Of a stretch of 64,000 nt of DNA, positions 1-49,888 are shown in pieces (positions within the stretch are counted from its first letter, which is position 1; every line of letters starts with the position of its first letter). The translations under genes and the position numbers were made by a program. The notes below the pieces were generated by a model, which did not search any database, was not told the origin of the DNA, and saw nothing but the letters and a program-made list of their open reading frames with translations. Origin of the DNA: Vermamoeba vermiformis (taxonomy: Eukaryota); contig JBEWZL010000284.1 in the NCBI GenBank assembly GCA_045837725.1, positions 1 through 64,000 on the forward strand, given 5' to 3'.

Positions 1-877
1 TACTATTAGAGCCGCCGCTTATATATGGAAATCATGCTTTAATACCTGACGTGGCGATTACTGCGCCTGAAGAACTGACCACGATCCACTCGTTCTCCCT
101 GTCTTCGGCGATCTTTAGAGCTCAGTACAATAACGACATATCTACGTACTATCGGGCATTAAAGTCACATTGGCAACTTGATTGCTATCCACTAAAGGCC
201 ACAGAATCTGACCGTCTAGCACGGGCACTTCAAAGACCGGAATAGCCAAACTTGCTACGGTGACTTCGTCATTGACACGGTAGACTAAAAACCCAGGTTC
301 ATCTAAATATTCAACGGTCAGTATCAATAAGGATCAGATAAGCCATTTAGTTGACGGAGCAATTGTTTCACTTTGAAGATCCGATCTTACAAAAAGTTGT
401 GGAAATTACGATTACTGCCACCGCCCCGTTTTTCTCCGCTTCAAAAGCGTCCTTTTCTGCTGGTAAATTCGAGTTCATGATGTATATTAAGCCATTCGCT
501 TCATTAAAATTTGTCGTGGTGGCAAGTGTCACTGCTTCCGCTAACGGAAGGTTGGATTACCTAACGTACATTAAAGATTATTAATATACAATCTAATACA
601 CTTATTACTTGTATTTGTTTAGCGAGAAGTGGATTTTGGGTTATTTCTTTTTCAGATGCGTTTTATTCGAACTGATTTGAAATCTCTTTATAGATCCATA
701 ATATCATTGGAAAATACTGCAATTATACTTACCGCGATAAATAATCTGAATTGCGTCGATTTCGTATTTGGTTCCGTTGACACTCTGTACAATTAATATC
801 GCTTCAGCGCCTATTATATGGCATAGGACATATATAAATACGCTAAAGTAAGATAGGTTCCCAACGGAAAAATGCAT
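1..877 (-). CDS. PA-domain + 7TM receptor-like protein, paralog 1 (5' part; continues off the left edge)
   Basis: ATG at 877 begins MHFSVGNLSYFSVFIYVLCHIIGAEA (signal peptide), then ILIVQSVNGTKYEIDAIQIIYR. Later exons give AEKNGAVAVIVIS and IPVFEVPVLDGQILW (PA-domain-like), then EWIVVSSSG. Exon structure matches paralogs 2-5. Confidence 0.8.
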
Positions 878-1216
878 TTTTGCGTCGGCTGAAATTTGTA
901 AATAAGCGTTGCAACGATCTGCTCGCTACTAGTAGTAGTTCTTAAGGATTGTGGTTTAGAGCCGAAAATAAGTTGAGTACTACCTCAACCGGTGAACCTT
1001 GGAGTCTTTTGGACCATGGATGTCAACCGGTGACATCTCAAGTCCTGTTGTGATTCGAACATTTAAAAAAATTTTTACGCGGTTTTCTAAAGCCACTGTT
1101 TTGCGCTTAAAGATCAAATCCAAACATCGGCACTTGACTCTGACTCCTGGGTTAGGGTAATAGAAATTTAACTTATTTTACATTTACTAGCTTGATCCGT
1201 ATCACAAATTACATTA

Positions 1217-3290
1217 TTATACAACGGTTGATGGAGGCTCGGCATTGGTATTAGTGTTCGTATTAGTGTTTATCGAGTCTCGCTTATTCGACGATCGATG
1301 CGAGTTAGTCTTTGAGGACTTAACAGAAGGTATTTCAAAGGCCAAAATATTCATCATCGATGCCGCATTGAACACGGAAATATACAGCGTCCAAATAACA
1401 ATATGACCTAATGATGCCGTTAATATTAAGAAGACGACAGTCGCGAAGCAATAAGGTGCTTATGAGGACTTACCGATTGGTCTGTAGGGCAGGCCAGTAA
1501 TGAAAAACACGGCCATTAGCGTGAACAGCAATAAAAAGCTGCCGCCAACTAGAATTTTTGTGGTAGCCTAATACAAGTAATTAAGTAAAGACTGATATTA
1601 TCTATCTTATTTGACGTACTCTGTTCAATCTGACGTTTCTGCCAGACTCTCGGCTCTCTTTCAATCGCTTCAACACTCTGACACCTGTCACCATGTAAAA
1701 GATGAACAGTGCAAGTACGACGACAAGGTACACGACAGCTATATGATTGTATTAGTACACATTGAAGTATTGAGTAGTAACACGCACCTGTGATAACGTT
1801 GAAGTTGAACTCGAGGTTCGTCGCGTTTCTGATAATCGTTCTGATGACTTGAAGAATGACCAACACCACTGCCAACAAAAAGAACGGAATCTTCATCTTG
1901 GTGATGAACGGATTGATCAAGACCGAGGAGTTGTTCATCATTTCGTGCCAGTACAACGTGAACAACAAGTACGATGAGATTGCAAACGGGATCGAGAGCT
2001 CCATCAGTGTTTGACCTGCCCACTCAGGGTACAGCGTGTAACCGCCTTGCGGATCAAAACACGCGAGAAGACGGACTGAATGAGCGTTAGAAAGTGCGGA
2101 GTGAAAAAAATTATTCGTGTCAAGTGTCACTTACCAAGGTTGGAAAAGAGCTCTATAGAAAGGACGTACAAGGCCATGGATGATTGAAAGCCACCGTAGT
2201 ATTGCACGTACGAGACTACTTTCCAAATCCCCAGCGCGAGATTCGTGCCCGTAAAAGCGCATAAAAATACTATAAAAGGAAATACATTAGGTGTCAAAAT
2301 CAATCAATAAAAGTATTTTTTAACGGTATTTACTTGAATCGAATATGGCACCTCCTGATTCGAGTACAAGTACCCACGGGTTATCAATCACTAAATAATA
2401 GGCATTAATTAATCATTTCATTAACGGTGCAAAAATTGAACGCAAATTGGACACGAGATACATTCGTGATTAATTAACGTGCAAAAGATTATAAAGACGT
2501 GGGATTTAGCCCTAAAGCATTATTTAACATACCGTCAGGCATTATAGTGACATTAGTAATTTGGCCACTTGTCACTAACGACCAAAGAATTCTTCCGTCT
2601 TCGAGAGGCACCTCAAAAATTGGGATCGAAATGTTTGCAGCTATTTTTTTATCGTTCATTCGATAGCCTAAGTACCCGGCATCGTCTTATAATAAAGAAT
2701 TATTATCGTATATTCAAGAAAAAGTTGTACTTACAAAACGTCGGACTGACGACAATAACGCCCTTCGCACCATTAATCTCCGCAATTGAGATATCATTTT
2801 CAACAGGTTTGCTCGATTGAATGACGTAGACGAGACCCTGAACTTGTTCAATCGATGTCGTCACCGTTGAAACAAGTGAGTCGGTGATTGGCTGGCTCGG
2901 ATTGCCTGTATAACATTGTTTAGTGCACCATAAGTTTTTTACTAAAAAGGCAATGACATCGGATCCATTGATTCAATTCGAGTATAATAAGGATGCTTAT
3001 TGGTTAAATTATCGAATAAAGTGTCAATTTAGGATAAAAAATTCGAAATTGAACCCGATCGGGAAAACTATTCCGATTCAATCGAATAGTCTCTATTAGC
3101 AATACCTCTTTATACTATCAGAGACTATTGTTATAATAACGATGTCGTTATTCTTACCTTTGTAAATAATTTGAAGCGATTTGATGTCATATTGAGAACC
3201 GTTTACAGCTTGTACTACCAGATCTGCCTTCGTGAGGGTACTATGCCATAGAACTACTATCAATGTGATACTAAGTATTGATCGGAGCAT
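1217..3290 (-). CDS. PA-domain + 7TM receptor-like protein, paralog 2 (multi-exon)
   Basis: Starts MLRSILSITLIVVLWHSTLTKA (signal peptide). PA-like exons follow, then NPW, the TM core ELSIPFAISSYLLFTLYWHEMM...KMKIPFF, and a last exon MMNILAFEIPS...PPSTVV-stop at 1217. Confidence 0.85.
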
Positions 3291-3904
3291 TTGTTTAAGT
3301 TGGGTTGTGTTTCGCGTTGTGGTTGTTTTGTGGATCTGGGTATGAAATTAGCAAAGTCACCAACCGACCTCATTTTTGGAGCCGGACGGTTTGGGAATCC
3401 AGTGGCTTAGTTATGACGCGTGACTAATATGTGTTATCTATCGTAAAACATCGCAAAGAAGTCGATTCGTATACGGGACTCGCGAGTCCCGATCTTTTCT
3501 CGTCTCGAATCTGTCAGACCGAATTGCAAGCGAGGGAAATGGCAGAGATCTCCAATAGTCATATTCTCTTTCGTTCGTACATTGAGGACTGCTAAAACGA
3601 TTATCAATTCTGCGGGGGTTAAAAAAATTGGAATATTTGAAAAAATAAAAACGACGATGTAGCGACTTTTATCTACCGTATTACTGTTAATAATAACTCA
3701 CCAATGCTATTATTTTGCGCACCACAATTTCCTAAACCTAGGAAACATTAAATAAAGTTCACCACCTTCCCGGGTATTCAAGCGTCGCTGAATGAGCTAG
3801 ACTCTTCTGTTGCCTAAGTTCGTTACATTAATAATATAATTTGTTGTTTATTGTGGCATTTGTACATTGTTGAAAAATAAAAATTTGGAACGTTACCGCT
3901 TTCG

Positions 3905-5893
3905 TTAAAGTGCGGTGGATGCGGTAGATGCAGCCGAACCCGAGCCCGTGTTACTCGCGCTGTTGCGCTTGATTGAGGTTGAACCACCAGATCTCGATGA
4001 GTGACTTGCTGGCACTTCGAAGGCAAGAATATTCATCACCGAAGCACAGTCAAAGATGACCATGAAAAGAGACCACACGATTGGAAGAGCTAAATGGAAC
4101 ATTAGACAGTGAATTAATTATATATGGCACGAAGGTGACGTACCGACTGGTTTATAAGGAGCGCCAGTGATAAACAGAATCGCTAAAAGGATAAAAAGCA
4201 ACAAGCAAGCGCCGCCAACGAGAATTCTTCGCGTGGTCTAGTACAAAAAACGTAATTAGACCAAAGCATATAAGTGACTAATAGGCGCCTTGACTCACTC
4301 TATTGAGTTGTCCTGGGTGTTTGCTCGTGTGCAGCCTCTTCAACACTTTGACACCTGTCACCGCGTAGAAGATCATCAGACCGACCAACACGGCGAGATA
4401 CACAGCGGCTACGATGTTATATTATTAGACATCGCATGGTATATAAGAGACTAGTAACTTACCTGTCACAATGTTGAAGTTGAACTCGAGTGTCGTTGCA
4501 TTTCGAATAATAGATCTGATCACTTGGAGCGCAACGAGAACGGCTGAAAGAACAAAGAACGGGATCTTCATCTTGGTGATGAATGGATGCACGACAATAG
4601 TAGCATTGGTCATCATCTCGTGCCAGTACAGTGTGAACAATATGTACGACGAGATCGCAAATGGGATCGAGAGCTCCATCAGTGTTTGAACAGCCCATTC
4701 AGGATAAAGCCCAAATGTGCCTTGATTATCCATGTATGCAATAAATCGGACTAGAATCATGCGTTAGAAGTTAAAGCAATAAATGCCTCGTTCACTGAAC
4801 GCTTACCAAGGTTTGAAAAAATTTCTATCGAGAGAACGTACAAGGCCATGGACGATCGGAAGCCGCCGTAGAATCGTACGAACAAAGTTAATTTCCAAAT
4901 AGCGAGTCCGATATTCGCCAACGCGAATAAGCAAAGAAATACTAAAAAAGGAAAAATTCAAATCTATTTTTGGCTCGGGAAAAACGTTTAACCTACCTGA
5001 GTTGAATATAATTGCTCCTGATGAGAATACTGTTGTCCAGGGGTTCACAATTTCTACAAATAAGATTATTTTAGTGCTCAAGTAACTTGGTCGGATCATA
5101 AAACCGAATCAATTTGCGATTACGTACGATTGGGCATTAAAGTAACATTCAGAATTTGATTGCCATTAAACATAGACCATAGCTTCTTGCCATCTTCCAC
5201 GGGAACTTCAAACACAGGGATTGAAATGTTTGCCGCTAACTTTTTATCGTTCATGCGATACATTAAATAGCCTGGGACGACTAGTGATGCCATTATTAGT
5301 CAATACCGTATGGAAGGAGCGAACTTACAATATATCGGCGAAATAACGACAGCTGCAACGGCTCCATTTTGCTCGGCAGATGTGATCTGTTTTTCGACAG
5401 GCAAACTGGAACGAATGATGTAAATCTTGCCTTGAACTTGATCTACAGCGTTCGTAACTACGGAGGTTAAAGAGGCTTCCATGAGCGGAGTTGGGTTGCC
5501 TGAGCGACATTAGATGTTAGTTACTTCCATATTTGGTAAACGCTTTACCGAAAGCAAATAATAATAATTACGTCGGTAATCACTAATTCACTATACAGCA
5601 TTGGAATATTGTAGAAAATTAATACCAAGTCAAGATTCTAGAGTAATTTTGTGCGTTTTTTTAAGTAAGTCAATTTAAAATTGCGTGCCGAAAAGAAATT
5701 GGGGCCGAAATGGTTGGATGTCGCTATAATTCTAGTATAGTGCTAGCTAATAATACGTACCTGAATATACTATTTGCAAAGCAGTTATGTTGTACTGAGT
5801 TCCATTGACGGCCTGTACGAGCATATCCGCTCGTACGCTGTCGGTCCAGCTTAATAGGACTAGTGCGGTTAATAAAATGATTGAACGGAGCAT
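3905..5893 (-). CDS. PA-domain + 7TM receptor-like protein, paralog 3 (multi-exon)
   Basis: ATG at 5893 begins MLRSIILLTALVLLSW. PA-like motifs SAEQNGAVAAVVISP and IPVFEVPVEDGKKLW, then NPW, the TM core ELSIPFAISSYILFTLYWHEMM, and a last exon VMNILAFEVP with a Ser-rich tail. Confidence 0.85.
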
Positions 5894-6952
5894 CAGTTGT
5901 GGTGAATGGTAGGTGCGGAAAGTTAAATTGACAATCTCGACTCAGGATTATTCTTAACGAAAAACCACGTGATTCCATTTAAGTCGAGTATTCGTTGGGG
6001 TGGTTTATCAGACTGGAAACAAGAGAATTGATTATATTATATTATGCGCAGCTTACTCAAGTATAACGAGCGATATTCTATGGCAGTCAAGTCCACGGAG
6101 GTGATGTGAGGCACTAACTTCCCAGATCTGTCAATCTCGGTATACGGCGGTTTTCTGGATCAACTCTAGCTTGCATGAACTCAAGCGCAGTAAGAGTGAT
6201 GCGAAACGCATGCATTGAACATGTCATATTGTTTGGAAGCTAATCACGCTTTCGGGTCTACACGGAACAACTAGCGGTTACGTAAAGTCGATCGAAACGT
6301 TCGAAATTTACTTACAAATTTGGTGTACTTCGCATTCATGAACAATGGGACAGGTGCATCTGTAGATCTTCAACACGGAATTTAAGTAGCGCTTGTTGCT
6401 TGAGAAACCACAGAGCAGGATAAATGAACTAATCTGGATCTCACTTGGAGGAGCGAGGAAATTTTTTTGTTGTATGAAATAAGTCATTAGTAATTATGTG
6501 CTTTTTGCTGAATAAAGCAACAAAAAGAAAAATTATGCAAATATTTTTGAATCTTATGCAAAATTGGATCAAGGCCGGGTAATTTACGAGCTTAATATGT
6601 GCCTCAATTACCATTCTAGAATATGAATTTGGCTTGAAGTGTTTTGCAAGGGCAGCCGCAGTTTTGTATTCAATGCACCGCTTGCTCTTGGATTCGAATT
6701 ACTGGTCCTGCGGTCAAACGCCTGAGCGCTTCTATGGCATGCAGCTCCTCGCAAGATTGTATATATATCAACAGTAGCTTTGCGATGAAGAGGGCTACTA
6801 ATAATAAGAAACTTGATTTGTGCACTTTTTTCTTTTGCGAACATTCGCACAATAGAATCTTCTTTGAGCTTCGCTGCACGTGTCAGCGACAATGATATCA
6901 ATGACATTCGTTATTGCGAAAGTTATTTTCTGTTTTGGATACCAAAGACACG

Positions 6953-8052
6953 ATGGCCAGTGCAATACTACCTGCATCTGAATACACGATCCGTGTAATG
7001 ACAATTGAGGATCACGCAGCAGTAAAAGAAATTGCCGCTGCAACGTGGAAAGGGCATGTACATGATTATGATTACGTAATTGATGCTTTTCCTCATTGGC
7101 TGAACACGAGCGAGGTACGTTCCGTTTAATTAAATTAAACGAAACTAATGTATATGGTAAATTGGGCCTCTAAGCCTAAATTAGCAATTAACTAATAATA
7201 GTGATATTTATGTAATAATTATTTTATTTTTAGAGCGTGCCGTTGGCTCTGCTAGATCAAGATGCGAAGGTTTTGGCTTTTACGAACGTCAGATTTATTG
7301 ACGAAGGTCAAACCGCGTGGATTGAGGGCACTAGAGTGCATCCTGATCATAGAAAGAAGAATTTAGGCGTAAGCAGAGAAGTATAAATTACACCATGCGA
7401 TCTGATGTTTAACGAAAACTGTCAGAGAATGGCGGAAAAATTGCTATTAAAGAACGCTGATTATCACTACTGCGTATTTTTGAACATGGAGCAAGCACAG
7501 AATTTTGCCTCCCTTCTCGAGATCTCGCAAGCAGATGCCGATCGAGAGTTTGAACGCGTGTCAGCCTCAGATCTGTTCGCACTGATACAAAGTCATCCTG
7601 TATTCTCTAAACACAAATATTTCGTTGCTGGATGGTCAGTTTACTTGCCACAACTGGATGCGCTACTAGCCGAAGAAAAAAAAGGTGCCGAGTTCTACGT
7701 CAACAAACGAGCAGATCCGAACCAACCCATAAGTACCTACGCTTATGGTAAACGTGTGGAGATCATTAGCTGCTCGAGAGGAGACTCTACAAGCAAATGG
7801 TATGTGATATAGATGCTTTGTAATATTGCTGCAAATGCGCTAACACGTGGGATCTGAAGGGTTATTGGCATCAGATCTATTAGCCCAGATCTGCTCTACC
7901 GAAGTATTGCCCATCATTATTACATTGCCAAAGAGAAAGACTGTGCACTTGTCGATATCAAATTCGATACGGAGTATGGCGAAGAATTTCACAAGAAGAT
8001 CCAGGCACCGATCGAGAAATTCGGAATGTACGTCTTTGAAGCGGATCTGTGA
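6953..8052 (+). CDS. GNAT acetyltransferase, NAT16/histidine N-acetyltransferase-like (multi-exon)
   Basis: YTIRVMTIEDHAAVKEI...DYVIDAFPHWL followed by DEGQTAWIEGTRVHPDHRKKNLG, which is the GNAT motif A acetyl-CoA loop. Ends YVFEADL-TGA. Confidence 0.7.
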
Positions 8053-8336
8053 CAATGACCTTTTAAAACAATATAAAATTTCATATTATAGTCGTTGTAT
8101 GGTATACAACACTTACTGCGTGCGGTTTAATTTTCGTCGGACAAATTTCAAGGAGTTTTGAACGAAAATTTTAATTTCTTTTGAAAAGGACGTAGGACAA
8201 TACGGCTCATTCATATTTATTTATTTTTAATACGATCAAACACACTTCTTGCAAAAAAACAGGTTTATGAAATCTGATCGAAGCAAGTTTCGATAGCACA
8301 GCAAAGGATCCAAAATTTCAACCTTATAATCACACC

Positions 8337-11026
8337 ATGAATACTATGAAGTCTTTAATAGAAGATTTGCCGAAGGAGATAAACGTGCAGATCTGTAAAT
8401 TACTAACTTGCCTCGAGGCATTCGATTTCGGATGCACTTCAAAAACGATGCTCAATGTCATAAAAGACAATACATTAGGCTTGGTGAGTATTTAAATAAG
8501 CGTATACGGCTAAAATTAATTGATTAGAACTAATTATTTTTTTTCATGAAGCGCTCGATGCTTTTCTCGGCCGCCCTCAATGAAGTTTATCAGCAAAATT
8601 GGTCCACTGCAAAGGTATTTATAAGATTTCAATTTCACTCGCCAAGATCGAAATAATGCGAAATTATAAAGTCGAAATTTATTAAAATTTAAAATAATTC
8701 AGGAACTCCTCTCAAAAATTATATTTCTATGGCCAAACGATTACATTGCATTAGAAGAACGTGCTTTTTGCTATTACAGCTCGAAACAAAAAGTTTGTGC
8801 ATTGTTAGAATTGCGAAGGACCGAAAAGGTAATTTTTAATTAACAAGCAAACCCTTATTAATGTCATTAAAATATTATAGACAGTGCCACCTAATTCAGG
8901 TTACCTTCATTTTATTTATTCGCGGCAGTATTGGATGAAAAAGAATTTTCCTGCCGCAGTTAGAGAAGTCGAAAAGGCGATCGAATTAAGCCCTAACGAG
9001 CCAAGATTTCGACATTTCCGAGGATTTTTAGAACGAGAGCATTCAGGAAATATTGAGGCTGAATTATCTATTTATGGTGCGTAGCAATATGAGATCTACA
9101 TCCGGACCTAAAATGGAAATTAAACTTTAATCTCATTTATTGATAAAATTACTGATTATTTATCATACAGATGACTTAATAGTTAGATTTCCTAACTACA
9201 TTCGATTGCACGTCACGTACAATAATATGGGATTTTTGAAGTATCTTAAAGAAGATCTGCCGGGCGCTATTGCCGATTACAAAAAATCAATAGAAATATG
9301 CCCTAAACATATAAGGTAATTATATATACGAATAATGCCTAAGTACTCACCTGCTTCATATTCAGAGCGTTCTATAATTTGACGCTTGCATTGACGGACG
9401 AGCGAAGATTTGACGAAGCGTTAGAAACGATTGAAGCAGCGGGATTAATTAATCCTAATCAACGCGACTCTTATCATTCACTGAAGGGCTGGTAAGCAAT
9501 CGAGAACTGAGATCTCACTTCTGCATTTAATTTTTAAAAATGGTGTCGGTACATCAGGATCTCGGATCGAATTTGCAACGTTGAAGTCAAATATGGTTTT
9601 CTTAGTTTGTATAATGCATATGTAATAATCGTATTGTTAGGGTGTTGCAACATATTGGCCGGTACGACGAAGCGAGTGAGCACTACAAACAGGCCCTCGA
9701 AGCAGATATCACGGACTTATCGACGACTACTGATGTGCACCAAGTATGGCTCTACCAGGGCCGTGCAGTGTTCATGAATCAGTTCTTGGCAGAGTCTATT
9801 AACAGAATCAATTCTGAGCTCGAAAGGTGTCGTATCACGCGACTTAAAATCGATGCAAGATTACAGTCTGAACGGTACAGAAATTTCAATTCGACGACGG
9901 ATCAATCATCGCACGATTATATTGATGCTTATATGGACGTCAATCAAGAAGAACGTGCGCTGAGAAAGGCATGGAGATTGAACAACAGGTAAGAATTCAT
10001 CTGAGGTCGTTAACTTATTCCACAAAGGCAACAATTATACCTTAATTAGATTTTACAATTATTATAACAATGTGTAGATATTTTTATTGACACGACTGTG
10101 AAAAAATCAAAACGACACTTGGACACCAAAAAATCGATATAAAATACTAATAATAAATGACAGAATAAATTAGTATTGTTTTGGCAACGAGACTAATGTG
10201 ATATTTAGATATTATGCAGAAAGTATGATTATATTGGGCAAGTTAGCAGAAGCACAAAAGATCCACCAAGAGATTAAAACGCGAATGCCGAGCAGCGACC
10301 CTGAAGAAGTCAAAGATGATTTTTATTTGGATTTTTTCTTCGAACAAATGCACGACAAAATTAATTCAATAGCGCCAAAGACATTAGAATTCGTCGTAAG
10401 ATAACAAATACCAGATGAAATTGAATTTTTTTGCATTTACCTGATTATTTTCTTTTATAGAAACTGATGGGCTTGTCCAAATTCGAAAAATTTCCGTTTA
10501 TTTTACCGCAGATCAAGGCGACTTTGCCTGGTGACGCGGATCAGGCGTATTTTATGTACAGCTATATTTATAAGATGGAAGAGCTTGGTGAACCTGCTCA
10601 ACCTGAAGACGAGCACTTATTATCGACCATGGAAAAGTGCAAACGATATTTAGAGTCTATTGAGCGGCACAAAAAGGAGTCAGGCAGATCCGATGTAAGA
10701 TCCAACAACCACCGAATGATTGAATAGAATACAGCTCGTATTAATACGAATTATAATTAGGCTACACAAGGCGCCTTTAGTATTCCTGGAGTGTTGGTTT
10801 GGCAAGCCAGAAAAATGTGGAGTAACGTACGTTGGATCTAGCAACAAAAAATTTAATTAATAAGCCACGTATTAATGTATCGTTATTATTATAGGCTATA
10901 TATGATATCCCACAGCAGTTTATTAACATCGTGGTCCAATCTTACGATGCCTGCAAGACAGACACTGGTGAGGCAGATCTCGTTAAACTTCGTGATGTAT
11001 TAGCAGCGGCGATTAATGAAACATAA
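8337..11026 (+). CDS. F-box + TPR-repeat protein (multi-exon)
   Basis: N-terminal LIEDLPKEINVQICKLL...FGCTSK (F-box). TPR units include AAVREVEKAIELSPNEP, GAIADYKKSIEICPKH and GRYDEASEHYKQALEAD. Confidence 0.75.
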
Positions 11027-11455
11027 AAATTTCATTAAATACTGCAAAGATAATACCAGATCCGGGGGTAGGAGCTGCTCGGTGACCCGCATCTGATGTT
11101 TGCTCGAATTCAGCCAGAAACATTTGGTGTCACTACGCGTTCAGAGGATTGGTTAAATATGCATGTTTTATGACAACTATATTGCTACAGGTACCTACTC
11201 TGGCAGTTGAACAAGAATTCCAAGATTTCCAAATATGGCAAGTATCCTGCATGTCATAAATGTAAAACGAGGTCCCATGGTTTGGACACTTTGAAATTTA
11301 CTTTAGTCTTTTCTTTGAACGTATCAGCACCCTTCTCCAGCGATACATCAAGCTTCTCCTTCGTGGCGCGGTGATCTGGATCTGGTATGATTTAACATAG
11401 CAGATGTATCTCAGTATTAACTCGGATAATTACAGGTAGCACCCATATTTACACA

Positions 11456-13337
11456 ATGCTACGGAGAGGATATGCACAGCTTTTAATCTACTTTGGATTA
11501 ATAGCGCTCGTAACGTTTCAGATCGAAGCGACGATAGTAGTGCAACTGAATAACGGCACGCAAGTAGAGATAGAAAGCGTAGAAATTATTTATATAGGTA
11601 TGTTATTATTTTAATTACAATAGAAGAGTTAAATACGATGCAAGTCTTCGGTCGCGACGTTTGTAAAATCAAGTATAAAAACATAAATAGGGCTATGAAA
11701 TAATTTTATATATCTTTATTCATAGGATCATCGATATCCGATAATTAATTATTCATTAGGAACCTCGAAGGAACTTTTGGCGGAACCGATCTCGCTTGAA
11801 GTTACATCAGATACGACTCAGGTTACCGATCGAATATATGTTATTAAAAGTCCTTTGGCTATTGATGAAATAGCGTTTCAAGTTCAGCAATCAGGAGCCA
11901 GAGCCGTTATTTACATTTCGCCGCTTTATTGTAAGTCTCTTATAGACCTTTTAAGCCTAATTATTAATGACCTTATTTATTATAGATGTTGGAGGCTATT
12001 TAAGAAGTCGAATCAATGATAGACAAGCTGTCCGCGAGATCAAGATCCCAGTTTTTGAAGTGCCAATTATAGATGGTCAAAAACTATGGTCATTTGTTCA
12101 AAATAATCAAATCGTAAATGCTACTATTCTTCCTACTGGTAAGTCCGAGAGTTAGCCTCCAAAACGTTAAATGTCATTTTTTTGATCTGGTCAACTCTAC
12201 AGGCAATGAGAATCCTTGGGACGAAGTGTTTAGTAGTCCTGCATACTATTTATGGCCGAGTACGTTGCCTATTAAACCTTTTATATCAAACTAACGGTAT
12301 CGATAGTCTCCTTAGGTCTATTTTGTATCGCGAACTTGGTACTTTGCTTATGGAAAATGTCAATTTTTCTGCGACACTACGGAGGATTTAGAGCCTCAGT
12401 ATCTCTCGTGGTACTTTCTATAGAGCTCATATCGAATCTAAGTAAGTCTTATGGATGTACCCTTTGATTCACACGTACCCAAAATGTTTATTGTGATTTT
12501 TCCAGTTAGGTTAGCTGCCTTCGTTGACCCCTTTGGAACGTTTGGCTTGTACACAGAACAAGCATACGCTGCACTACTCGAGCTCTCGTGGCCCTTCTCG
12601 ATAGCCTCGTACTTACTGTTCACGCTGTATTGGCACGAAATGATGACCAGTTCAACGGTGGTCGTGCATCCGTTCATGGTGAAGATGAAAATTCCGTTCT
12701 TCGTGCTCAGTGCATTCCTAGTATGCTTGCAAATAACGCGTACTATCATCAGAAACACTTCACCATTTGATAGCTTTACCACGGTCACGGGTATGTGGAT
12801 TCTCATTTTGACATTCATCGTTCTAACTTTAAATGTAGCATCTGTCTATTTGGTCGTAATAACTGGACTATTAGTCTTCTATGGAATTACTGGCACAAAA
12901 TTATTGATCAGACTGAACAAAAGCAAAAATCTTGGTCGTGCCGTCAATTTACGAAAGGTTCGTAAGAAGGTTTATTACTGTTATTCAAATATTGAATTGA
13001 CCTTTATATTTTAGAGTACCATTCGTATTCTTATTTGTGGCGGTATGCTTGTAGGATTCGTTATCGTGGTCATTCTTTTCGTCGCTAAAATTGCGTACAA
13101 AACTCCGCTCGGTAAGTTACAGGCGTTTGATTAGGCTCCCTAGCTAATTTTTAAACAGCATTTGTACTCGTATGGTATTTTCTGCAATTGTTATTAAATG
13201 CCATCTCTATTATGGCGATCTTAGCATTTGAATTGCCCTCGAAACATTCGTCGGCTTCGGGATCAAGTAGAACTAACACCAGTTTGCACGAACGAAAAAA
13301 CAGTATTACTACTTCAAGTGTTAGACCTGATAATTAA
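11456..13337 (+). CDS. PA-domain + 7TM receptor-like protein, paralog 4 (multi-exon)
   Basis: Hand-spliced in frame from start to stop. Signal peptide MLRRGYAQLLIYFGLIALVTFQIEA, then PA-like VQQSGARAVIYIS...IKIPVFEVPIIDGQKLW, ENPW, seven hydrophobic segments and a Ser/Thr-rich tail. Confidence 0.85.
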
Positions 13338-13495
13338 TGTAAATACGTTCAAAAAATAAAATTCAGAAAATTTAGTATTATTCAATTCCGATTCTGAAAT
13401 CTCATAAATACAATTAATAATAATTTTGTTGTTTATGTAGGTAAATTATGAAAAAATTAAATAGACTGGAATAGAAAAGAATTGCAGATCTGCTG

Positions 13496-14681
13496 TTACA
13501 AAGTGTAGCCCTTGCTAGCGAGCATTTCGACCGATTTGTCCCATAACTTCAATGCATTAGGAAGACTATCAGCTTGCTTAGTAATAGTCACCACTTTGTT
13601 CGTGTCCCAGTACTGGCCCGTTCTCAAATCCGTTGGCGCTGCCATCGCGACATTGACCGTAGGTTTAGCAGCTAAACATAAGAATAAGCATGAATAAATA
13701 CGTCTCCTATGATATTGGTTTGACTTACCTTCAGTAGGAGAGATAAAAAAGAGCTTGTAAACCAGATTCATAATCGGTCGCATAGCGGGAGAGCCTTCCC
13801 GACCCAGCTCCGTTTTAACAGCGCCTGGATGCATCGTAGCAATAGTAATATTGTTGATGCCTACATTAGAGGTCTTTAATATTCAAATTTCTGTCGTAGT
13901 AAGTGTTTTGTAGCGTACCTTGTTCTTCGAGTTTTTTTCGTAGGGCGATCGAGAACCACAAATTGCAGAGCTTGCTGCTGCCGTAGAGCTTCAATGAAGT
14001 AATGGTCCATAAACTCTTCTCTTTCTCAACTTTAACGGGTATTTCATCCACAGCGCTCGGATGTGCGACTGCAATTAAACAGTTAAATTAATTTTGCCTT
14101 ATAAGGAAAGTCTCGTGACAATTAAAGAAACGTACATTTGTATGCGTTGCTACCAATGTTAATAATACGTGCTGTGCTTGGACTGCGCTTTAATGCGCCG
14201 AGCAAGCGATCTGCAAGATTAGATCGCGATTAGAGGTTTTCCAATTTACCTTAGTCGCCTTTACTTACTAGTAAGCAAAAAGTGGCCCAAGTAGTTCACT
14301 TGGAACATTTTTTCAAAGCCATCGCCGGTCTTCTCAAGTTTTGAGGCGAACTAGAAGTCTTAAGAAAAATAATTCAAATCTTAAGTTGTAAATACTTACC
14401 ACACCAGCATTGTTGATTAATACGTCCAAGTGCTTGTGCTTTGCATTGAAATTTTCGGCGAATTTGTTGACGGACTCCAAGTTAGAGAGATCGAGCTGAA
14501 TAAATTCAAGTCGCTCGTGGCCTTCGCTACCGCAGATGGTCTTAATAGCCTCTTGAGCTTTCTTCTCGTCTCTGCAAGCGATGACAACGTGGCAGTGGTG
14601 ATCCTTCCACAAAGATGTTGCTGTCGCGAGGCCTAATCCGCAGTTAGAGCCAGTGACGATGGCGACTTTAGAGTTCTGCAT
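13496..14681 (-). CDS. Short-chain dehydrogenase/reductase, retinol-dehydrogenase/WWOX-like (multi-exon)
   Basis: Contains VAIVTGSNCGLG (TGxxxGxG), LDLS, LINNAG, catalytic YGSSK and HPGAVKT. Confidence 0.9.
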
Positions 14682-15839
14682 GGCTATTGTAGGTAGTAGG
14701 TGCGTTGTACGTTGTGGTGATGATAGCAATTTAAAGATTTTGTTTAATCTGTGTCATCTCGTTAGCGCCTGATCCACGTGGTCAGTCCTTTGCCAAAATA
14801 AGTCTGCGGGTCATTTCAAACTGTTCCAATATTTGCCGACGGAAGAGCACACGAAAATCAGTAAATTCACCAAGGATATTTCTTATTTGTCGTTTTCAAT
14901 GCTTCATTCAGTTGATCCCGTCAGACGATGCTTGATACCGGGCAAAGGCCAACCAGATCGAAGGCAAGCAACACTGTAATCAAGTGAGATGAGCAATTGA
15001 GCGAGGGAAGAGTTCGCTAGCAAGGCCTCAAGTTTTGTTAAACCTCCGAGTTGATGTGCTGAGATAACGGTAACGTGCGTTAAAATTTATCATTTACCAA
15101 TTATAAATTATGTTTCAGTTTTTGAAAATTTACTGCGCTATAAATTAATGCAATAATCCTTTGATTTTAATTACCTTTTCAAATCCAGATTAATTTCGTT
15201 TTTGATTAAATGTATCGCTACAGCTGTAAATTTGCAATAGTACATATTATTACCTTATTACTTTCATAATTACTTCGAGGCAACGTAACTTCCACTTGGC
15301 GTGTTGCGTTTTTCTTCGTTTTCAAAATTGAGGACCTCGAAATTATCAATCAACGCTAATTATAGCCGTTATTCTTTTCCGTGCCCTATTTAATTACATT
15401 GACAACGTTTATTTTTGCCGTCAGCGTGTTTCTTCAGCGCTTTTTACCATTTATAGTAGTAGATCTGGTTTTGGCGAGATATTGTGCACCTATTGTCACT
15501 TAAAAGCTCAGTAACGCCCTATTGTCATTTAATTCTTACTTGCGCTCGTCGTCACTAGTCTTTGAGCACAAAGACCAGTGAAAAGAGAATTGCTGCCGAC
15601 TCACACCAAGTCCGGTCTTGCCTATTTTTGACGCGTAACAACAAGACTGCGTGTCACGTCTTCGGGACATTCGAGCATTCGCAACGAACAAGAGCAACAG
15701 AGCTGGTGCATCGATATCGACAACCGAACCAACTCGTACTACCTAAGACATCTTTCGTTAGTGAATGTAAGTGGACTTGGATCCAGGCCGGTGACTCTAA
15801 CTAACTAACTGACTTCCTTTCGAAAGAATCGAACTAATC

Positions 15840-17890
15840 ATGAGACTAAGGCAATTAATACTATGCGTGGCTATATTGGTGCTAGGACACTGCAGCCTAG
15901 TCGCTTCAAACCTGCTCATCCAAACTAAAAATAGTACTCAGCTTGAGTTAACGAGCGTTCAGATAATCTATATAGGTACGTATAGAAACTTTCAACAATC
16001 AGTAAATTAGAACGTTGCAGTGCGATTTAAGTTTGTTTCTCCGACTGGGATGCACCCATTGATTGTTCCCGATTATTGATGCTCTTCATCAGGAACACAA
16101 GGAGAACTCATCGTTGAGGCATTGAATGTAGACACGCTATCAGATGATATTAACAACGTTGCGGGAGCAGTTTACGTAAGCAAGGCAAACTTGCCGATCG
16201 ACGAGCAGATCCTCGCAGCTCAGAACAACGGCGCTGTAGCTGTCATATATGCTACTCCTACCTACTGTAAGTATAGTCTCATCCGCGACTTCAACCGTTC
16301 ACAGCCCCATTCAATCAGAAAAGCATCTGCGTTTGACGAATGACAGGATCTGTTTTAAGTATAAATTTACAACAATGGTAACTAAAAATTTTTCTTAGAT
16401 ACTCCTGGTTATTTAAGATATCGTTGGAATAGTAAAACCGCTAGAGATCAAATCATAATCCCGGTCTTTGAACTTGGACTTTTGGATGGACGAACTTTCT
16501 TCTGGCTGTTTAACAAAGGAGACTACGCAAATGTGACTATATTGCCTAATGGTAAATACGGTTGATTCATTTTCGTTCTGAAGCTTGATCTAACCTCCGT
16601 AACTCGAGAATCCGTTAATGAATGGCAAACCGTTCTTGAATCACCGGGAAACTACGTCTGGCAAGGTAAATATTATTATATATTCATGACTAATTCTAAG
16701 GATCTTTGCCTAATCATAAAATTCGTCAAATAGCGTTTCTTGCTGCGTTTTGCGCGGTCAACATTGGTCTTGCCAGTTGGAAACTTCATAGCTTTTTGAA
16801 ATATTATGGAAAAGTACGGAGCTCAATATCGGTTTACGTTCTACTCATTGAGATCCTGTCTAACGCAAGTAAGTATTAATTTACGATTTTCTGGCGCCAA
16901 AATACAACTCGATCCGTTACGAATTAAATAATCGTTTTTTTTGATTTGGCAATGATTGGGCTTAATATTGTTACGCGCCTCAATTCAATTCTAATTTTTT
17001 AATTTTTCGCAGTCCGACTTGTACTGGCGATCGATCCGATGGTATCAAACAATTTGTACCCCGAGCCAGTATCCGTTGCATTCGGCGAGCTCTCGTTCCC
17101 CTTTGCACTATCCTCGTTCATGTTGTTCACACTGTACTGGCACGAAATGATGACCAAGTCCTCGGTGGTCGTGCACGCCTTCATCACCAAGATGCGCATT
17201 CCGTTCTTCATTCTTTCAGGTGCACTGCTTGCCCTGCAAATCATTCGCATTCTCTTGCGCAGTTTCACGACATTAAGTCAACTGCCCTTAGTGACTGGCA
17301 AGTACCCATGTTCATTACGATATCAATGGCAAGTCCTAATAGTCTCTTCGCGCAGCCGTTGCGTACTTGTTGGTGATCGTGGGCATGACTGCGTTCTACA
17401 TTGTGACTGGCGCCAAGTTGCTCAAGCGATTGAACAGAAGTAAAAATCTCGGCCGCGTCGTCAGATTGCGACAGGTAAGCCTTACTAATTAGTACTAGTC
17501 GGATAGCCCAAACTAATATCTTTGTTCCATGCCTATTAGAGCACTATTAAGATCCTCGTCAGCGCTGGCTTCTTGCTCTCGTTCGTCGTTTTTGCAATTT
17601 TGTTCGTGTCTGGCATCGCTTATTATCCCACATGTACGTCATTCATCATATTCATTCAGTATTATATGTACTCACCATGGCGATATTTAGCTTATTTGAT
17701 CGTGTTCTACGCACTTTGGACCGCGATCTGTGCCGCGTCAGTGATGAACATTCTCGCGTTTCAAGCGCCTACTGGCAAGTCCTCGGGATCTAGCAACAAA
17801 TTTTCGAGCGGCACTGCTGCTAGTGCGACGAGTTTGGCGCCGATGGAAAGCAAACGTGAGAGCATGCACATCCAATCGGCCCGTTTGTAA
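15840..17890 (+). CDS. PA-domain + 7TM receptor-like protein, paralog 5 (multi-exon, one GC-AG intron)
   Basis: Signal peptide MRLRQLILCVAILVLG. PA-like AAQNNGAVAVIYA and IIPVFELGLLDG. TM core ELSFPFALSSFMLFTLYWHEMM. Last exon VMNILAFQAP. Confidence 0.85.
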
Positions 17891-18103
17891 ATAGAAAGAT
17901 GAAAATGTACAGTAGTCTCGAATAATCAGAGATAAATTATTTATTATTAATGGTGTGGCACGTGCGTAATATTTGCTATCAACGGAGATACAGGTGTTCG
18001 TTGAGCTGATTCAAAATTTCCTATTTTGGTAATTCGCTTGGAGTGGTAAGTGTCAAAGTGTCAATTTCAAGAACGTTCGTTAAACGTGATCGATATATAT
18101 TTG

Positions 18104-18248
18104 CTTATTTGTATGCTGGTTCTCGTTGTTTACTGTGCTCAATGGAGCGTCAATGATGAATATTTTGGCCATCAGAGTTCCCTCGGGCAGTTCTGGCGGT
18201 ACTAGCAATCAATCTCGCTACCGGTCACGATCTGTCAACAGCTACTAG
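18104..18248 (+). pseudogene. Orphan copy of the terminal (TM7 + tail) exon of the PA-7TM family
   Basis: Reads CWFSLFTVLNGASMMNILAIRVPSGSSGGTS, homologous to the family's ASxMNILAF. The acceptor is atatttg-cttatttg versus atatttag|cttatttg in paralog 5, and there is a 1-nt frame defect. Confidence 0.65.
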
Positions 18249-18450
18249 CCGCTCTAGAAGAAATGCCTTGAAAAGCAATTCCCATGCCCACCAAATCCGA
18301 AAAAAGTGTCACATCTGCTGAAACCGAAGACGAACCTAACAGTGCAACGCTGGAAATTGTGAATAATCATACAAAGACAATGTAAATAATGTGTAAATAA
18401 TAACGTAAAATCGAAAGAAATTGGATCGCTTGTCTTTTGAATTATTCAGT

Positions 18451-20350
18451 TTAGTAGCTTTCTTTAATAAACCGAGAGGTTAGTGGACCATATAATGTTA
18501 CAAATAGAACAGATACAGTATTCCAAGCGAGAAATTCGACAGTGTTCTTCTCCCATCTGATCAGCGCCGCCACATCCAGTTTCAAGTTTTGCGCGCAATG
18601 ACGCAAGAAGTTGATTATAATAGCAAATAATACTATCGCTGCATATAGCACGAAGTTTCTAATAAAAGTGAACAAAATTGCACCAGATTTGAACGCATCC
18701 ACTGTCAATCGCCAATCGTTCATCGTCAAGACCAGACAATAGGCCACAAATAATACGAACATTCTAAATTCAAACCCTTCCTTCTTATAATAATCGTGCG
18801 CTAGTCCCGAATAAATAAAGCAGCCAGCCACTAACGCAGTCAAATAAAAAACTTCGCGGGCCCAACTTGAAAAAATAAATAATAGGCCAATAGTGAATAA
18901 TACTGCTGGTAAAAATATCGCTGCTGCTCTTTTCCTATAGTTGGGCTCGTTCACGTGGTCCCATATGACAATTGAGCCGATAAATCCTTGTCCTGCTGCG
19001 CCAATCAAACTGAGCAGCAGATCGACCCAAAATTTGTTTGGATTAGTGCTGGCCCAATAATCGACTAATACGCATGGTGTGTACCATAGGAAGAGTATAT
19101 ACAATAAGTTCGTATTAAGTCTAATAAGCCCTTAAAAAATTAAAAAATTAGTTTTTGCGCATCCGCGTAAACACGACAATAAATATTAATAAGGATATAA
19201 TACAGCATATAAATAAATACGTATATATATTCTTACCGGCAAGCTTAGGCGCAGGGTCCATAACTCGATAGCTATAGAAGCACGGGAACTGCGAGTAATG
19301 TTGCTGAACATAGGGCAGATCCACGATGATTTCTACGACGCTGCCAGCAGAAAATCGCCAATGCGGGGCAATAGTCTCTTTCGGCACTGTAAAGTAATTG
19401 GACTCGTTGTTGCGGAACAACCAGTCTTTGTCGTTTTGATGGCTAGTTTCTAGTCTCAGCTTGGCTAAATACCTGCGAAGCAAAATATTAATTAAATATC
19501 ATTAATATGGATATTATATTGCGACAAATATATTCTATATGAATATTAGACCATAGGAAAGTTCGTGACGCGCCGTTACAAATCCGGATTGGATCTTACT
19601 TTGAAGCATTTCCAGAGTTATGATAAGGTCCGTATGCAGGAGCTCCTAGTGCTACTTTTAACTTGACTAAGCTCGCTGAGTCAGCATCAATAAGCGTTTT
19701 TCCAAGTCGATCTGCAATGAGTTTATCTTCAATGTGCCATTGCGCACTGTAATCCTTCTAAATAAGGAAATTTCCATATTAATACCGAAATGATAGATTA
19801 AATATATAGACGTACGGGATAGTTCAGCCATTTTAGCTTCGCTAAGTCAAAAGGTGTTCTTAGATCTGCTCCCAATTCTTCAATAGTTGCGCGTGATTGG
19901 CCACTATAAATAACGTATGTTAATATATGACTACTAATATACGTTTCAAATTTACGATCAATTCTGAGCTCGATCTGCTTACATTTTTGAAAACACGACG
20001 TCGCGGATCTGTTTCTTGTTGGCGTGATAACACCAATATTTACTCACTGAAGAACATGCCAATATTGTTTTATAATCACAGTTCATAAGCACCTCTTCGA
20101 GAATTTCCTACGAGTTTATTTGAAAATTAGAATCCGAGTCTTTTTCAGTTAAAAAAATATCCAATTTCACCCTTAAAAATTATATGATAATATAGTACTA
20201 ATATATACATACCGGTGGTAGTGTTTGATCAATTACTGCTTCAGATGGATAAACATAGGCTGACTTTTTAATTTTCTGAATTGTTTGGTGCATAAATGCC
20301 ACAAAGAATATTGCAGGCAATATCAGCGATAATGTTAATGTCCATGACAT
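18451..20350 (-). CDS. N-terminal TM + F-box + polytopic membrane domain protein (multi-exon)
   Basis: ATG at 20350 begins MSWTLTLSLILPAIFFVAFM. The spliced sequence TLPP|EILEEVLMNCDYKTILACSSVSKYW is an F-box. The last exon (about 217 aa) has roughly seven hydrophobic helices. Confidence 0.7.
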
Positions 20351-20608
20351 AGTGTGATAGTGTTAAATACAATATATTTCGGAATTCTAATTTCGTTTAA
20401 TCAAATCCACCTCTCATGCCAGCTGAATTAGGCTTTAATAATTTGCCTGATATAGCTAAATATTAGGCTAATGTGAGGTGTGTATGTTCATAATAATATT
20501 AACGGTTAAAATGACGCGGACAAAGTTTTGATTTTTTTGTCCGTTGATCGAAGACACAGCAACAGATCAAGCCCTTAATTAATAATATTAATATATAAAT
20601 AGCTTATT

Positions 20609-23600: not shown

Positions 23601-24454
23601 GTAGCAAATTCTTCGATAAAATGATCCCAAACACTTTGGATGTGCGTGTCATCAATTTTAAGATCCAAGTCAAACCACGTGATCAAATTGAAAATTGGAA
23701 TCTTTGCGTGAATTCTGGCCGCGCTGTCGGATGCAGGATGAACGACATTGATACAAAAGAATTGGTCAAAGGAAACAAAGAAATGTTGTTCAAAGTCATA
23801 TGGCAAGTTATCAAAGTCGGCTTGGAGACCAAAATGAAGAAAAATCAAAACTTAATCAAGAAATTTATGGACAGTGGCGATGACATGGAAAATATGGTGC
23901 GATTGGCCTCGGACAAGTTAATCTTGAAGTGGGTAAGTGACACGAACTGACACTTTGACACGTGTCACAAACAAATTTACCTTGTTTCGACAACCTTTCT
24001 TTAAAACCAACCACGAGATGCCATAATTAATGGCCCTATTAATTTTAGGTCAATCACACTTTGCGTGCCAATGGCGTGTTAAAACAAGTAGACGACATCA
24101 CCAAGGACTTCAAGGCACGTGTTACACGAGTCTATGCTACCATATTGATCCTAACTATAATGATTACTTAGGACTCGTCGGCCTATGCGACTATATTACA
24201 TCAATTCGCTCCTAGTCTCATTGACAAGAAGAAAATTTTGAACGAAAATGACATGTCTAAACGAGCCGCGATTATTGTAGATCTCACTGAAAAATTCAAA
24301 ATTCCGGGCTTGATTACTGCCAACGGTATTATTGATGTAAGTATGATAGTATACGACAATATACGAACGGTAAATGTTAATACTAGTTTTTCTGCAGGGC
24401 TTGTACTGGCAAAACTTTATGTTGTTGGCAACGTTGTTCTTAGCCTCCAATTAA
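20609..24454 (+). CDS. Long ER/K-rich helical rod + C-terminal fimbrin-type tandem calponin-homology (actin-binding) domain
   Basis: About 10 exons of E/R/K-only sequence. Then CH1 (LFNYVNNTL...DLTDGIVM...MIPNTLDVRVIN...IENWNLCVNSGRAVGC...VIWQVIKVGL) and CH2 (LILKWVNHTL...DFKDSSAYATILHQFAP). Confidence 0.8.
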
Positions 24455-27166: not shown

Positions 27167-30854
<3,688 letters not shown>

Positions 30855-49705: not shown

Positions 49706-49715
49706 GTTGAGATTC

Positions 49716-49728
49716 GTCGGGCGCACCA
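49716..49728 (-). other. Primer-binding site
   Basis: TGGTGCGCCCGAC lies 1 nt after the 5' LTR and is complementary to a tRNA 3' end ...GGGCGCA-CCA. tRNA-Gly is a plausible primer, but this is inference. Confidence 0.8.
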
Positions 49729-49729
49729 A

Positions 49730-49888
49730 TGTAGTGAGTCGTCCGAGTAAATAATGAGGCGTGGTATTCAGTGTAAGATAAGGCTTAACAAGCCTGATTT
49801 TTATTTAGGTATACAAATACAGTTTATCAACCGACGGAATCACATCTGTGAATCCGCAGCACGTGGAGTGTAGATCTACTCCACTACA
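49730..49888 (-). repeat. 5' LTR
   Basis: Identical by eye to 43229-43387 and followed by the PBS on the element strand. Confidence 0.97.

Follow-up and report, generated by a model that had tools for sequence, protein, structure and literature searches.

What do five related genes at the start of an amoebal contig encode, and do they belong to any recognized class of membrane receptor? To answer this question, we analysed positions 1 to 64,000 of contig JBEWZL010000284.1 (GenBank assembly GCA_045837725.1) of Vermamoeba vermiformis, hereafter the window, whose first 17890 nucleotides had been read in a preliminary description as holding five paralogues, each with a signal peptide, a protease-associated (PA) ectodomain and seven transmembrane (7TM) segments. 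Our analysis confirms the PA + 7TM architecture, which is widespread in amoebae, is transcribed in close relatives and, as far as we found, has no name.

The window has a G+C content of about 40% and its reading frames are split into short exons; with the closest named proteins coming from amoebozoan transcriptomes, it is probably nuclear DNA. Four homologues, P0001–P0004, were found first, with 43–47% identity to the largest exon; P0004 and P0002 guided gene models built with a spliced protein-to-genome dynamic programme and later refined at single junctions. This spliced alignment places five paralogues within positions 1–17890 in the arrangement first described, with three tandem minus-strand copies and two plus-strand copies:

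1–877, minus strand: copy A, partial; exons 877–733, 540–391, 302–150, 102–46.
1217–3290, minus strand: copy B, complete, 446 amino acids; exons 3290–3158, 2905–2735, 2685–2533, 2390–2334, 2269–2135, 2075–1788, 1738–1620, 1567–1474, 1407–1217.
3905–5893, minus strand: copy C, complete, 441 amino acids; exons 5893–5761, 5499–5329, 5280–5128, 5053–4997, 4941–4807, 4750–4463, 4408–4299, 4237–4144, 4089–3905.
11456–13337, plus strand: copy D, complete, 445 amino acids; nine exons, given with their roles below.
15840–17890, plus strand: copy E, complete, 450–452 amino acids; exons 15840–15975, 16093–16266, 16399–16551, 16609–16665, 16734–16868, 17013–17297 (or –17290), 17356 (or 17343)–17474, 17540–17633, 17691–17890.

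Copies B–E each comprise nine exons and encode 441–450 amino acids (450 or 452 for E). Only the first four exons of copy A lie inside the window, the remainder falling past its start; they encode a signal-peptide-like N terminus, the PA ectodomain, a linker of the form N-E-W and the first part of TM1. The donor of intron 1 is a canonical GTAAGT, placed at phase 1 as in the paralogues. Intron phases are identical across B–E (1,1,1,1,1,1,0,1), and A has phase 1 at each of its first four introns, bearing out the shared intron positions previously noted. The introns span 47–261 nucleotides with GT-AG boundaries; intron 6 of copy E allows two in-frame options, a GC-AG intron at 17298–17355 (donor GCAAGT), which keeps the position seen in the paralogues, or a GT-AG intron at 17291–17342 whose ends are shifted by 7 and 13 nucleotides. 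Against a family profile hidden Markov model (HMM), copies B, C, D and E score E values of 3.5e-107, 5.1e-113, 1.9e-116 and 1.8e-111, and the partial copy A scores 1.2e-16 over residues 13–171; the profile is a 148-row alignment (A3) that includes the four homologues from which the gene models were built. Judged by these profile scores, the resemblance of the five genes is not due to chance.

Spliced transcripts from close relatives support the gene models. None of the sequencing runs listed as carrying the stretch is recorded as RNA, and we aligned four runs to positions 1–19200 at 90% likeness or more. The contigs of run X1 are mostly 95–99% alike; the RNA reads of X6–X8 are 90–95% alike and come from a relative, not the same strain, despite carrying the same species label, and their depth, mostly below 1, supports splice sites and not expression level. 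X1 contigs skip exactly introns 2, 3, 5 and 8 of B, introns 2, 5 and 6 of C, introns 2 and 6 of D and intron 2 of E, and also skip introns 7 and 8 of C with diverged flanking letters; a 9-nucleotide indel explains the shorter loop of copy C. Intron 8 of B is crossed by RNA reads from X6 (2), X7 (5) and X8 (6), and intron 6 of copy E is not covered among the RNA joints listed. Altogether, of the 32 introns in copies B–E, no fewer than 11, among the joints listed, are confirmed in relatives' transcripts at 90–99% identity, showing that the orthologues in these relatives are transcribed and spliced as modelled.

The same evidence contradicts the reading that the copies are pseudogenes or that the models are artefacts of chance open reading frames, which we consider extremely improbable. 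Four complete reading frames with canonical splice sites, full-length family HMM matches at 1e-107 or better, nonsynonymous divergence (dN) well under a saturated synonymous divergence (dS) and the spliced transcripts of relatives all argue against decay; a fragment beyond copy E, which resembles a dead exon, is what can be said for it:

18090–18250, plus strand: last-exon relic (TM7 and Ser-rich tail), about 200 nucleotides after the copy E stop.

This relic is 59% identical to P0004 residues 390–423 (tblastn), is closely preceded by stops in the same frame, lacks a clean AG acceptor directly upstream and shows a mean RNA depth of at most 0.11 (bin 17921–18560). We read it either as a partial duplicate that has degenerated or as an alternative 3′ exon that is not used.

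We next consider what the proteins would look like, beginning at the N terminus, which is hydrophobic in all five copies. Exon-2 pieces from the window score below the 23.9-bit cut-off of the Pfam PA family PF02225 (C, 3.2e-4, 21.2 bits; E, 0.013, 16.1 bits; A, 0.12, 12.9 bits), and those of B and D give no PF02225 match. Among 86 long family members, 19 match PF02225 at E ≤ 0.01 (best 5.6e-13) and 28 at E ≤ 1. Searched against solved structures, the family profile matches the PA region of aminopeptidase 2ek8 (E 2e-7), peptidase 6hc6 (2.3e-5) and subtilases, as well as the ZNRF3 ectodomain (7e-4), the transferrin-receptor apical domain (1.5e-3) and RNF128 (0.04). We count the window proteins as PA-domain proteins because they match this family profile (E 1e-107 to 1e-116 for the complete copies).

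A structural model points the same way. An AlphaFold2 (AF2) model of homologue P0004 computed with 148 sequences reached a mean predicted local distance difference test (pLDDT) score of 86.9 and a predicted TM-score (pTM) of 0.85, superseding an earlier run with 4 sequences (pLDDT 52.5) that was too weak for the bundle. Residues ~24–150 of the model form a beta/alpha domain, mostly at pLDDT 84–97, for which Foldseek returned, at probability 1.00, the PA domain of the vacuolar sorting receptor VSR1 (target TM-score 0.59–0.66), the ZNRF3/RNF43 ectodomains (target TM-score 0.44–0.56) and the PA inserts of C5a peptidase and M28 aminopeptidase. G91, G106 and P124 (P0004 numbering) are conserved PA residues, and all five ectodomains share a pair of N-glycosylation sequons. 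On profile and model, the ectodomain is a PA domain of about 130 residues, and the PA-like assignment of the preliminary description stands.

The PA domain leads directly into the membrane through a short linker of near-invariant pattern D/E-x-N-P-W, in which the N-x-W core is found in 114 of 125 rows (N) and 102 of 123 rows (W), in agreement with the N(P/E)W linker seen earlier. The model contains seven helices, at residues 167–197, 205–225, 236–267, 277–304, 309–341, 347–377 and 383–406, and transfer of their limits through the alignment assigns the exons of copy D as follows:

11456–11597, plus strand: N-terminal hydrophobic leader and first strands.
11760–11930 and 11986–12138, plus strand: PA core.
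12203–12259, plus strand: N-P-W linker and start of TM1.
12307–12441, plus strand: TM1, intracellular loop 1 (ICL1) and TM2.
12506–12790, plus strand: end of TM2, TM3, TM4 and start of TM5.
12839–12957, plus strand: TM5 and basic loop.
13015–13111, plus strand: TM6.
13159–13337, plus strand: TM7 and Ser/Thr-rich tail.

When the P0004 model was compared with 48,161 chains using VIA-align, the best 50 matches listed all had a G-protein-coupled receptor (GPCR) fold, with Z scores of 17.4–19.8 over residues ~157–415 and root mean square deviations of 3.4–4.3 Å over 213–264 residues; the level quoted for unrelated helical bundles is about 13–14. Of these 50, 48 are solved GPCRs, the majority from class A and two of them GABA-B receptors of class C; the other two are GPCR-like folds designed de novo. 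The membrane part is thus, as modelled, a GPCR-type seven-helix fold, and the GPCR-like character suspected earlier is borne out on the P0004 model. The class A family 7tm_1 was not matched in the 86 members, in a scan covering all families at E ≤ 0.01 and the first 25 of 46 families at E ≤ 1. Single matches to Frizzled, DHHC, Tweety and other families among these members, and a UMPH-1 match on exon 6 of copy C (E 0.044), were rejected as noise from hydrophobic segments.

Conservation is concentrated at both membrane faces. Near-invariant positions (P0004 numbering) include N158 and W160 of the linker and R220, D226 and P227 at the end of TM2 and in extracellular loop 1 (ECL1) on the outside, and W261 and E263 on the inside; P248, L256, W261 and E263 lie in TM3, and P282 and P383 are likewise near-invariant. 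The cytosolic end of TM3 carries a Y-W-H-E motif (Y in 103, W in 136 and E in 112 of 144 rows), and TM7 carries N-x-x-S-L-L-Q/N-I-L-A-F. ECL2 and ECL3 are tiny, with 4–6 residues each. The TM5–TM6 loop holds 3–7 Lys/Arg in 14–17 residues, compared with 0–2 in the outer loops, and two acidic residues in B but none in C–E. The tails contain 14–16 Ser/Thr per 35–42 residues, a separate count gives 31% Ser/Thr in the tails against 16% overall, and their 3–8 phospho-code-like patterns are an effect of this composition. A PDZ-type C terminus was considered as a family feature and rejected, an [ST]-x-hydrophobic ending occurring in only 18 of 119 tails. The seven segments, basic loop and Ser/Thr-rich tail that had been assigned to every copy are therefore present in B–E, and those of A lie past the window start. 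The topology shown by these sequences and the model is N-out, with the PA domain predicted to be extracellular or luminal and the basic loop and tail cytosolic.

To determine how far this architecture extends, we searched 1.84 billion representatives with a four-sequence HMMER profile and recovered 714 proteins at E ≤ 1e-3, of which 313 pass 1e-10 and 40 pass 1e-30. Among 148 aligned matches, 122 span the 7TM region, and the PA columns are filled to at least 60% in 82 of these, to 30–60% in 20 and to less than 30% in 20. The 40 rows with poorly filled PA columns have short N termini, as would be expected of truncated contigs. By this alignment the PA + 7TM architecture is the rule within the family, and the search beyond the window that the preliminary description had proposed thus finds the fusion well outside these five genes. 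Thirty clusters were looked up, and their named sources are all Amoebozoa: Vermamoeba vermiformis (2), Echinamoeba exundans, Nolandella sp., Rhizamoeba saxonica and Nematostelium gracile. Two further clusters are MMETSP transcripts, and 22 derive solely from JGI/IMG or Logan; these 22 are mostly labelled 'hypothetical protein', with two 'uncharacterized membrane protein' entries, a few automatic misnames and five without a name. Further leads, to Endomyxa and Zoopagomycota, come from a protein atlas, where the clusters concerned are all 'hypothetical protein'. By its named sources, the family is found mainly in Amoebozoa.

The copies in the window are old. We built a quick tree of 34 rows, comprising B–E and 30 family members picked from the best-scoring long matches and their cluster-mates, with A and all other matches excluded and support given by the Shimodaira–Hasegawa-like approximate likelihood ratio test (SH-aLRT) and not by bootstrap. 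Copies B and C group together as sisters (support 100), the partner of D is the foreign sequence P0007 (support 100), its nearest row at 73% identity, and E falls within a clade of P0001, P0003, P0004 and Vermamoeba sequences (support 96); B–E all lie inside one 16-row clade (support 98). Synonymous sites are saturated, with a proportion of synonymous differences (pS) of 0.60–0.86 and many dS values undefined. Because the copies interleave with foreign sequences and dS is saturated, the duplications are older than the split from related amoebae, and by these comparisons the five genes are old paralogues and not a recent burst. The earlier label 'lineage-expanded' is consequently not supported, given 714 clusters, five amoebozoan genera, interleaved copies and saturated dS. 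A second claim, that the ectodomains diverge more than the TM core, holds in direction: pairwise amino-acid identity among the window copies is 39–59% in the ectodomain and 46–65% in the bundle, a modest difference for which saturated synonymous sites preclude a dN/dS test of selection on the ectodomain versus the 7TM region.

What might such a protein do? The mature protein would run from a cleavable leader through an N-glycosylated PA domain and the linker to seven helices with short outer loops, a basic TM5–TM6 loop and a Ser/Thr-rich cytosolic tail. We infer that the PA domain, the sole sizeable exposed part, may bind a protein or peptide ligand, by analogy with vacuolar sorting receptors and ZNRF3/RNF43; that occupancy could pass through the rigid N-P-W linker and an outer-face pair, the Arg at the end of TM2 and the Asp-Pro in ECL1, to the helix bundle; and that the cytosolic face of the bundle, formed by the end of TM3, the basic loop and a phosphorylatable tail, would engage a cytosolic partner. 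We give this reading, a signalling receptor in which PA ligand binding is coupled through the bundle to a cytosolic output, a probability of roughly 0.5.

The conserved residues bear on a different proposal, in which the PA domain would bind no ligand and would instead serve folding, oligomerization or protection of a bundle that acts as a transporter, channel or lipid-handling protein. PA domains mediate dimerization in some subtilases, several GPCR-fold families are not receptors, and G91, G106 and P124 are core structural positions with no obvious binding site. The strict conservation of the linker and of R220 and D226-P227 suggests instead that ectodomain and bundle are coupled, no transporter family scored above its Pfam cut-off among the families listed for the 86 members, and the best 50 VIA-align matches are all of GPCR fold. 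We regard a PA domain without a ligand as improbable.

Relatives of the bundle lend more weight to another alternative, a non-signalling sensor of cargo, sorting or luminal content in the endolysosomal or phagosomal system, in which the PA domain would bind cargo, the 7TM part would act as an anchor or trafficking module and the output would be sorting or mTORC1-type nutrient signalling. The 7TM comparators for such a protein would be TOM1/THH1, lysosomal GPR137, GOLD-domain 7TM proteins and Wntless. Known membrane proteins with a PA domain, including VSR, RMR/RNF13, SPPL2 and Pff1, are mostly endosomal or vacuolar, and the nearest 7TM sequence families are THH1/TOM1/TOM3, GPR137_N and PRRT3. 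The TM domain of Pff1, a vacuolar membrane protease, is weakly matched (2 of 86 members at E ≤ 0.01 and 3 of 86 at E ≤ 1, best 3.2e-6), Wntless 8tzs appears at Foldseek rank 34, and the host is phagotrophic, a setting in which such receptors would help. A survey of choanoflagellate GPCRs presents GPR137 as a receptor of the lysosome that controls the translocation of mTORC1 (bioRxiv 10.1101/2025.04.15.649019, PMC12716839). Matches to signalling GPCRs, however, are as strong as any (Z 18–19.8), and the TM3 motif, basic loop and Ser/Thr-rich tail fit a signalling receptor, yet are compatible with sorting. A sorting role is a serious but secondary candidate, to which we assign about one chance in three, somewhat less than to signalling.

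Several observations weigh against the signalling-receptor reading. The class A switch motifs D/E-R-Y and N-P-x-x-Y are absent by inspection of column counts. The fold evidence comes from homologue P0004, which is about 40–48% identical to the window proteins. The extra divergence of the ectodomain is modest. Window exon pieces scanned singly with Pfam, including the exon-6 pieces, match no 7TM family. The likeness to TOM1/THH1 (DUF1084) that the preliminary description drew from TM3 does identify the nearest named 7TM family, but it is weak, with just 2 of 86 family members reaching PF06454, the one Pfam 7TM family matched above its cut-off, at E ≤ 0.01. Finally, the named 7TM relatives are not proven G-protein-coupled receptors, and TOM1 is a host factor of the vacuolar membrane.

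A broader version of the signalling-receptor reading would make PA-7TM proteins an ancient, previously unrecognized eukaryotic class of receptor, in which the PA domain would read the ends of proteins or peptides in the medium or the phagolysosomal lumen, for example those derived from prey, and would gate a TOM1/GPR137-type bundle. We consider this version unlikely as it stands, though of consequence: if true, phagotrophic amoebae would possess a multi-paralogue sensor array linking food to TOR, G proteins or arrestin-like adaptors, and the orphan TOM1/GPR137/PRRT clan would for the first time include a protein whose ligand-binding module can be identified. The TOM1/THH1, GPR137 and PRRT3 group has no known ligands and its receptor status is debated. 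That such a bundle occurs widely in nature joined to a PA domain, a protein- and peptide-binding module, provides a concrete handle, as the ectodomain could be expressed alone for ligand fishing, and the conserved linker and outer-face residues suggest a route from occupancy to the bundle. Amoebozoan biology gains a multi-copy, transcribed, receptor-like family. Should the proteins prove to be lysosomal sorting or nutrient sensors instead, a single polypeptide would still join the PA sorting receptors to the lysosomal 7TM proteins.

Unrelated genes interrupt the copies between C and D and between D and E. A gene without a Pfam family at 6905–7812 on the plus strand has the top RNA depth of positions 1–19200, and its GT-AG intron at 7113–7231 is crossed by 9, 26 and 16 reads (X6, X7 and X8). 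Between C and D lies a multi-exon tetratricopeptide repeat (TPR) gene (~8271–10727, plus strand) with seven GT-AG introns in one spliced X1 contig, and between D and E a short-chain dehydrogenase/reductase gene (adh_short, E 4.7e-17; 13496–14753, minus strand). Beyond the copies, a 226-amino-acid open reading frame (ORF) at 18451–19131 on the minus strand has many hydrophobic segments and no Pfam family (MauE only, E 0.0058), with coverage by RNA reads and by a contig of X1. The plus strand is strongly purine-rich at 20001–24000 (AT skew 0.17–0.30, GC skew 0.16), where a 21-nucleotide AAG-rich tandem repeat occupies 22111–22165. A DEAD-box helicase exon lies at 27850–28845 on the minus strand (DEAD 9.3e-24, Helicase_C 1.4e-29). 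Positions 43433–49804, also on the minus strand, hold a Ty3/Gypsy-type long terminal repeat (LTR) retrotransposon, with a 601-amino-acid gag-like ORF (zinc knuckle), a single stop codon and then, in the same frame, a 1521-amino-acid pol ORF with aspartyl protease, reverse transcriptase, RNase H and integrase domains; this same-frame gag-stop-pol layout suggests that pol may be expressed by stop-codon read-through.

How does the family compare with known systems? A full-text literature search that combined the vocabulary of PA domains with that of 7TM proteins, GPCRs and the THH1/DUF1084 family and with Pfam accessions brought up no account of PA fused to 7TM, the supplementary catalogues of PMC12716839 lying outside its scope; the preliminary remark that no characterized fusion of this kind was known accordingly holds for the literature searched. 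In the portions available, papers pairing 'protease-associated' with 'seven-transmembrane' concern LGR4–RSPO–ZNRF3, where the modules reside in separate proteins. Similarly, a term search of a survey of social-amoeba GPCRs (PMC10445921) found no occurrence of PA, TOM1, DUF1084 or GPR137.

Among 7TM proteins the closest comparison is with THH1/TOM1/TOM3 (PF06454, formerly DUF1084), the plant tobamovirus-multiplication proteins, which like the window family are seven-helix membrane proteins. The PF06454 cut-off of 25 bits is passed over TM1–TM5 by P0001 (32.7) and P0183 (32.5), two members of the same 90% cluster, and P0217 reaches 15.8 bits, under the cut-off. With the 7TM part alone, the nearest named clusters in the atlas are PRRT3 (0.88), THH1/TOM1 (0.87) and GPR137_N (0.86), values below 0.9 that serve as leads only. 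Word-index searches with P0001 residues 130–395 (9 matches) and with the A3 profile (14 matches) returned the same family only and no true THH1/TOM1 protein. We read the bundle as divergently related to the THH1/TOM1/TOM3 group, with GPR137 and PRRT3 as probable relatives too. TOM1 is not known to have any domain beyond the bundle. By contrast, the window family places about 160 residues, the leader and PA domain, before TM1 in B–E and in the 82 well-filled rows of 122. GPR137, as far as the accessible sections describe it, likewise has no domain beyond the bundle (bioRxiv 10.1101/2025.04.15.649019, PMC12716839), and the part available of a study of PRRT3/4, which it presents as GPCR-like 'superdark' proteins, leaves PA domains unmentioned (Nature 2026, PMC13581589).

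The orphan protist 7TM family RSF ('Remi-sans-famille') provides a further comparison, made by description only. According to the accessible sections of PMC12716839, RSF occurs in choanoflagellates and other protists, has amoebozoan homologues and a weak structural link to THH1/TOM1/TOM3, and carries no extra domain but a short additional helix that lies between TM6 and TM7 and bears the motif NxLQxxMNxL. The TM6–TM7 loop of the P0004 model, by contrast, has 5 residues and no helix, and the window family adds a PA domain and conserves a different motif, the N-x-x-S-L-L-Q/N-I-L-A-F of TM7.

Two groups of proteins resemble the family from the ectodomain side. VSR1, ZNRF3/RNF43, RNF128 (PA-TM-RING), SPPL2 and Pff1 share with it a luminal or extracellular PA domain adjoining the membrane, which in those proteins is followed by a single TM segment with RING or EGF modules or by a nine-helix protease, and in the window family by a GPCR-fold bundle; no RING, EGF or presenilin-type (GxGD) peptidase follows the PA domain in the 86 members, in a scan that covered all 10 families at E ≤ 0.01 and, at E ≤ 1, the first 25 out of 46. 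Class C, adhesion and Frizzled GPCRs and the GOLD-domain 7TM proteins (GOST) share with it an ectodomain set directly before the 7TM region. In those receptors the ectodomain is a Venus-flytrap, GAIN, CRD or GOLD domain; GOST proteins begin with GOLD, whereas the ectodomain of the window family matches PA and not GOLD.

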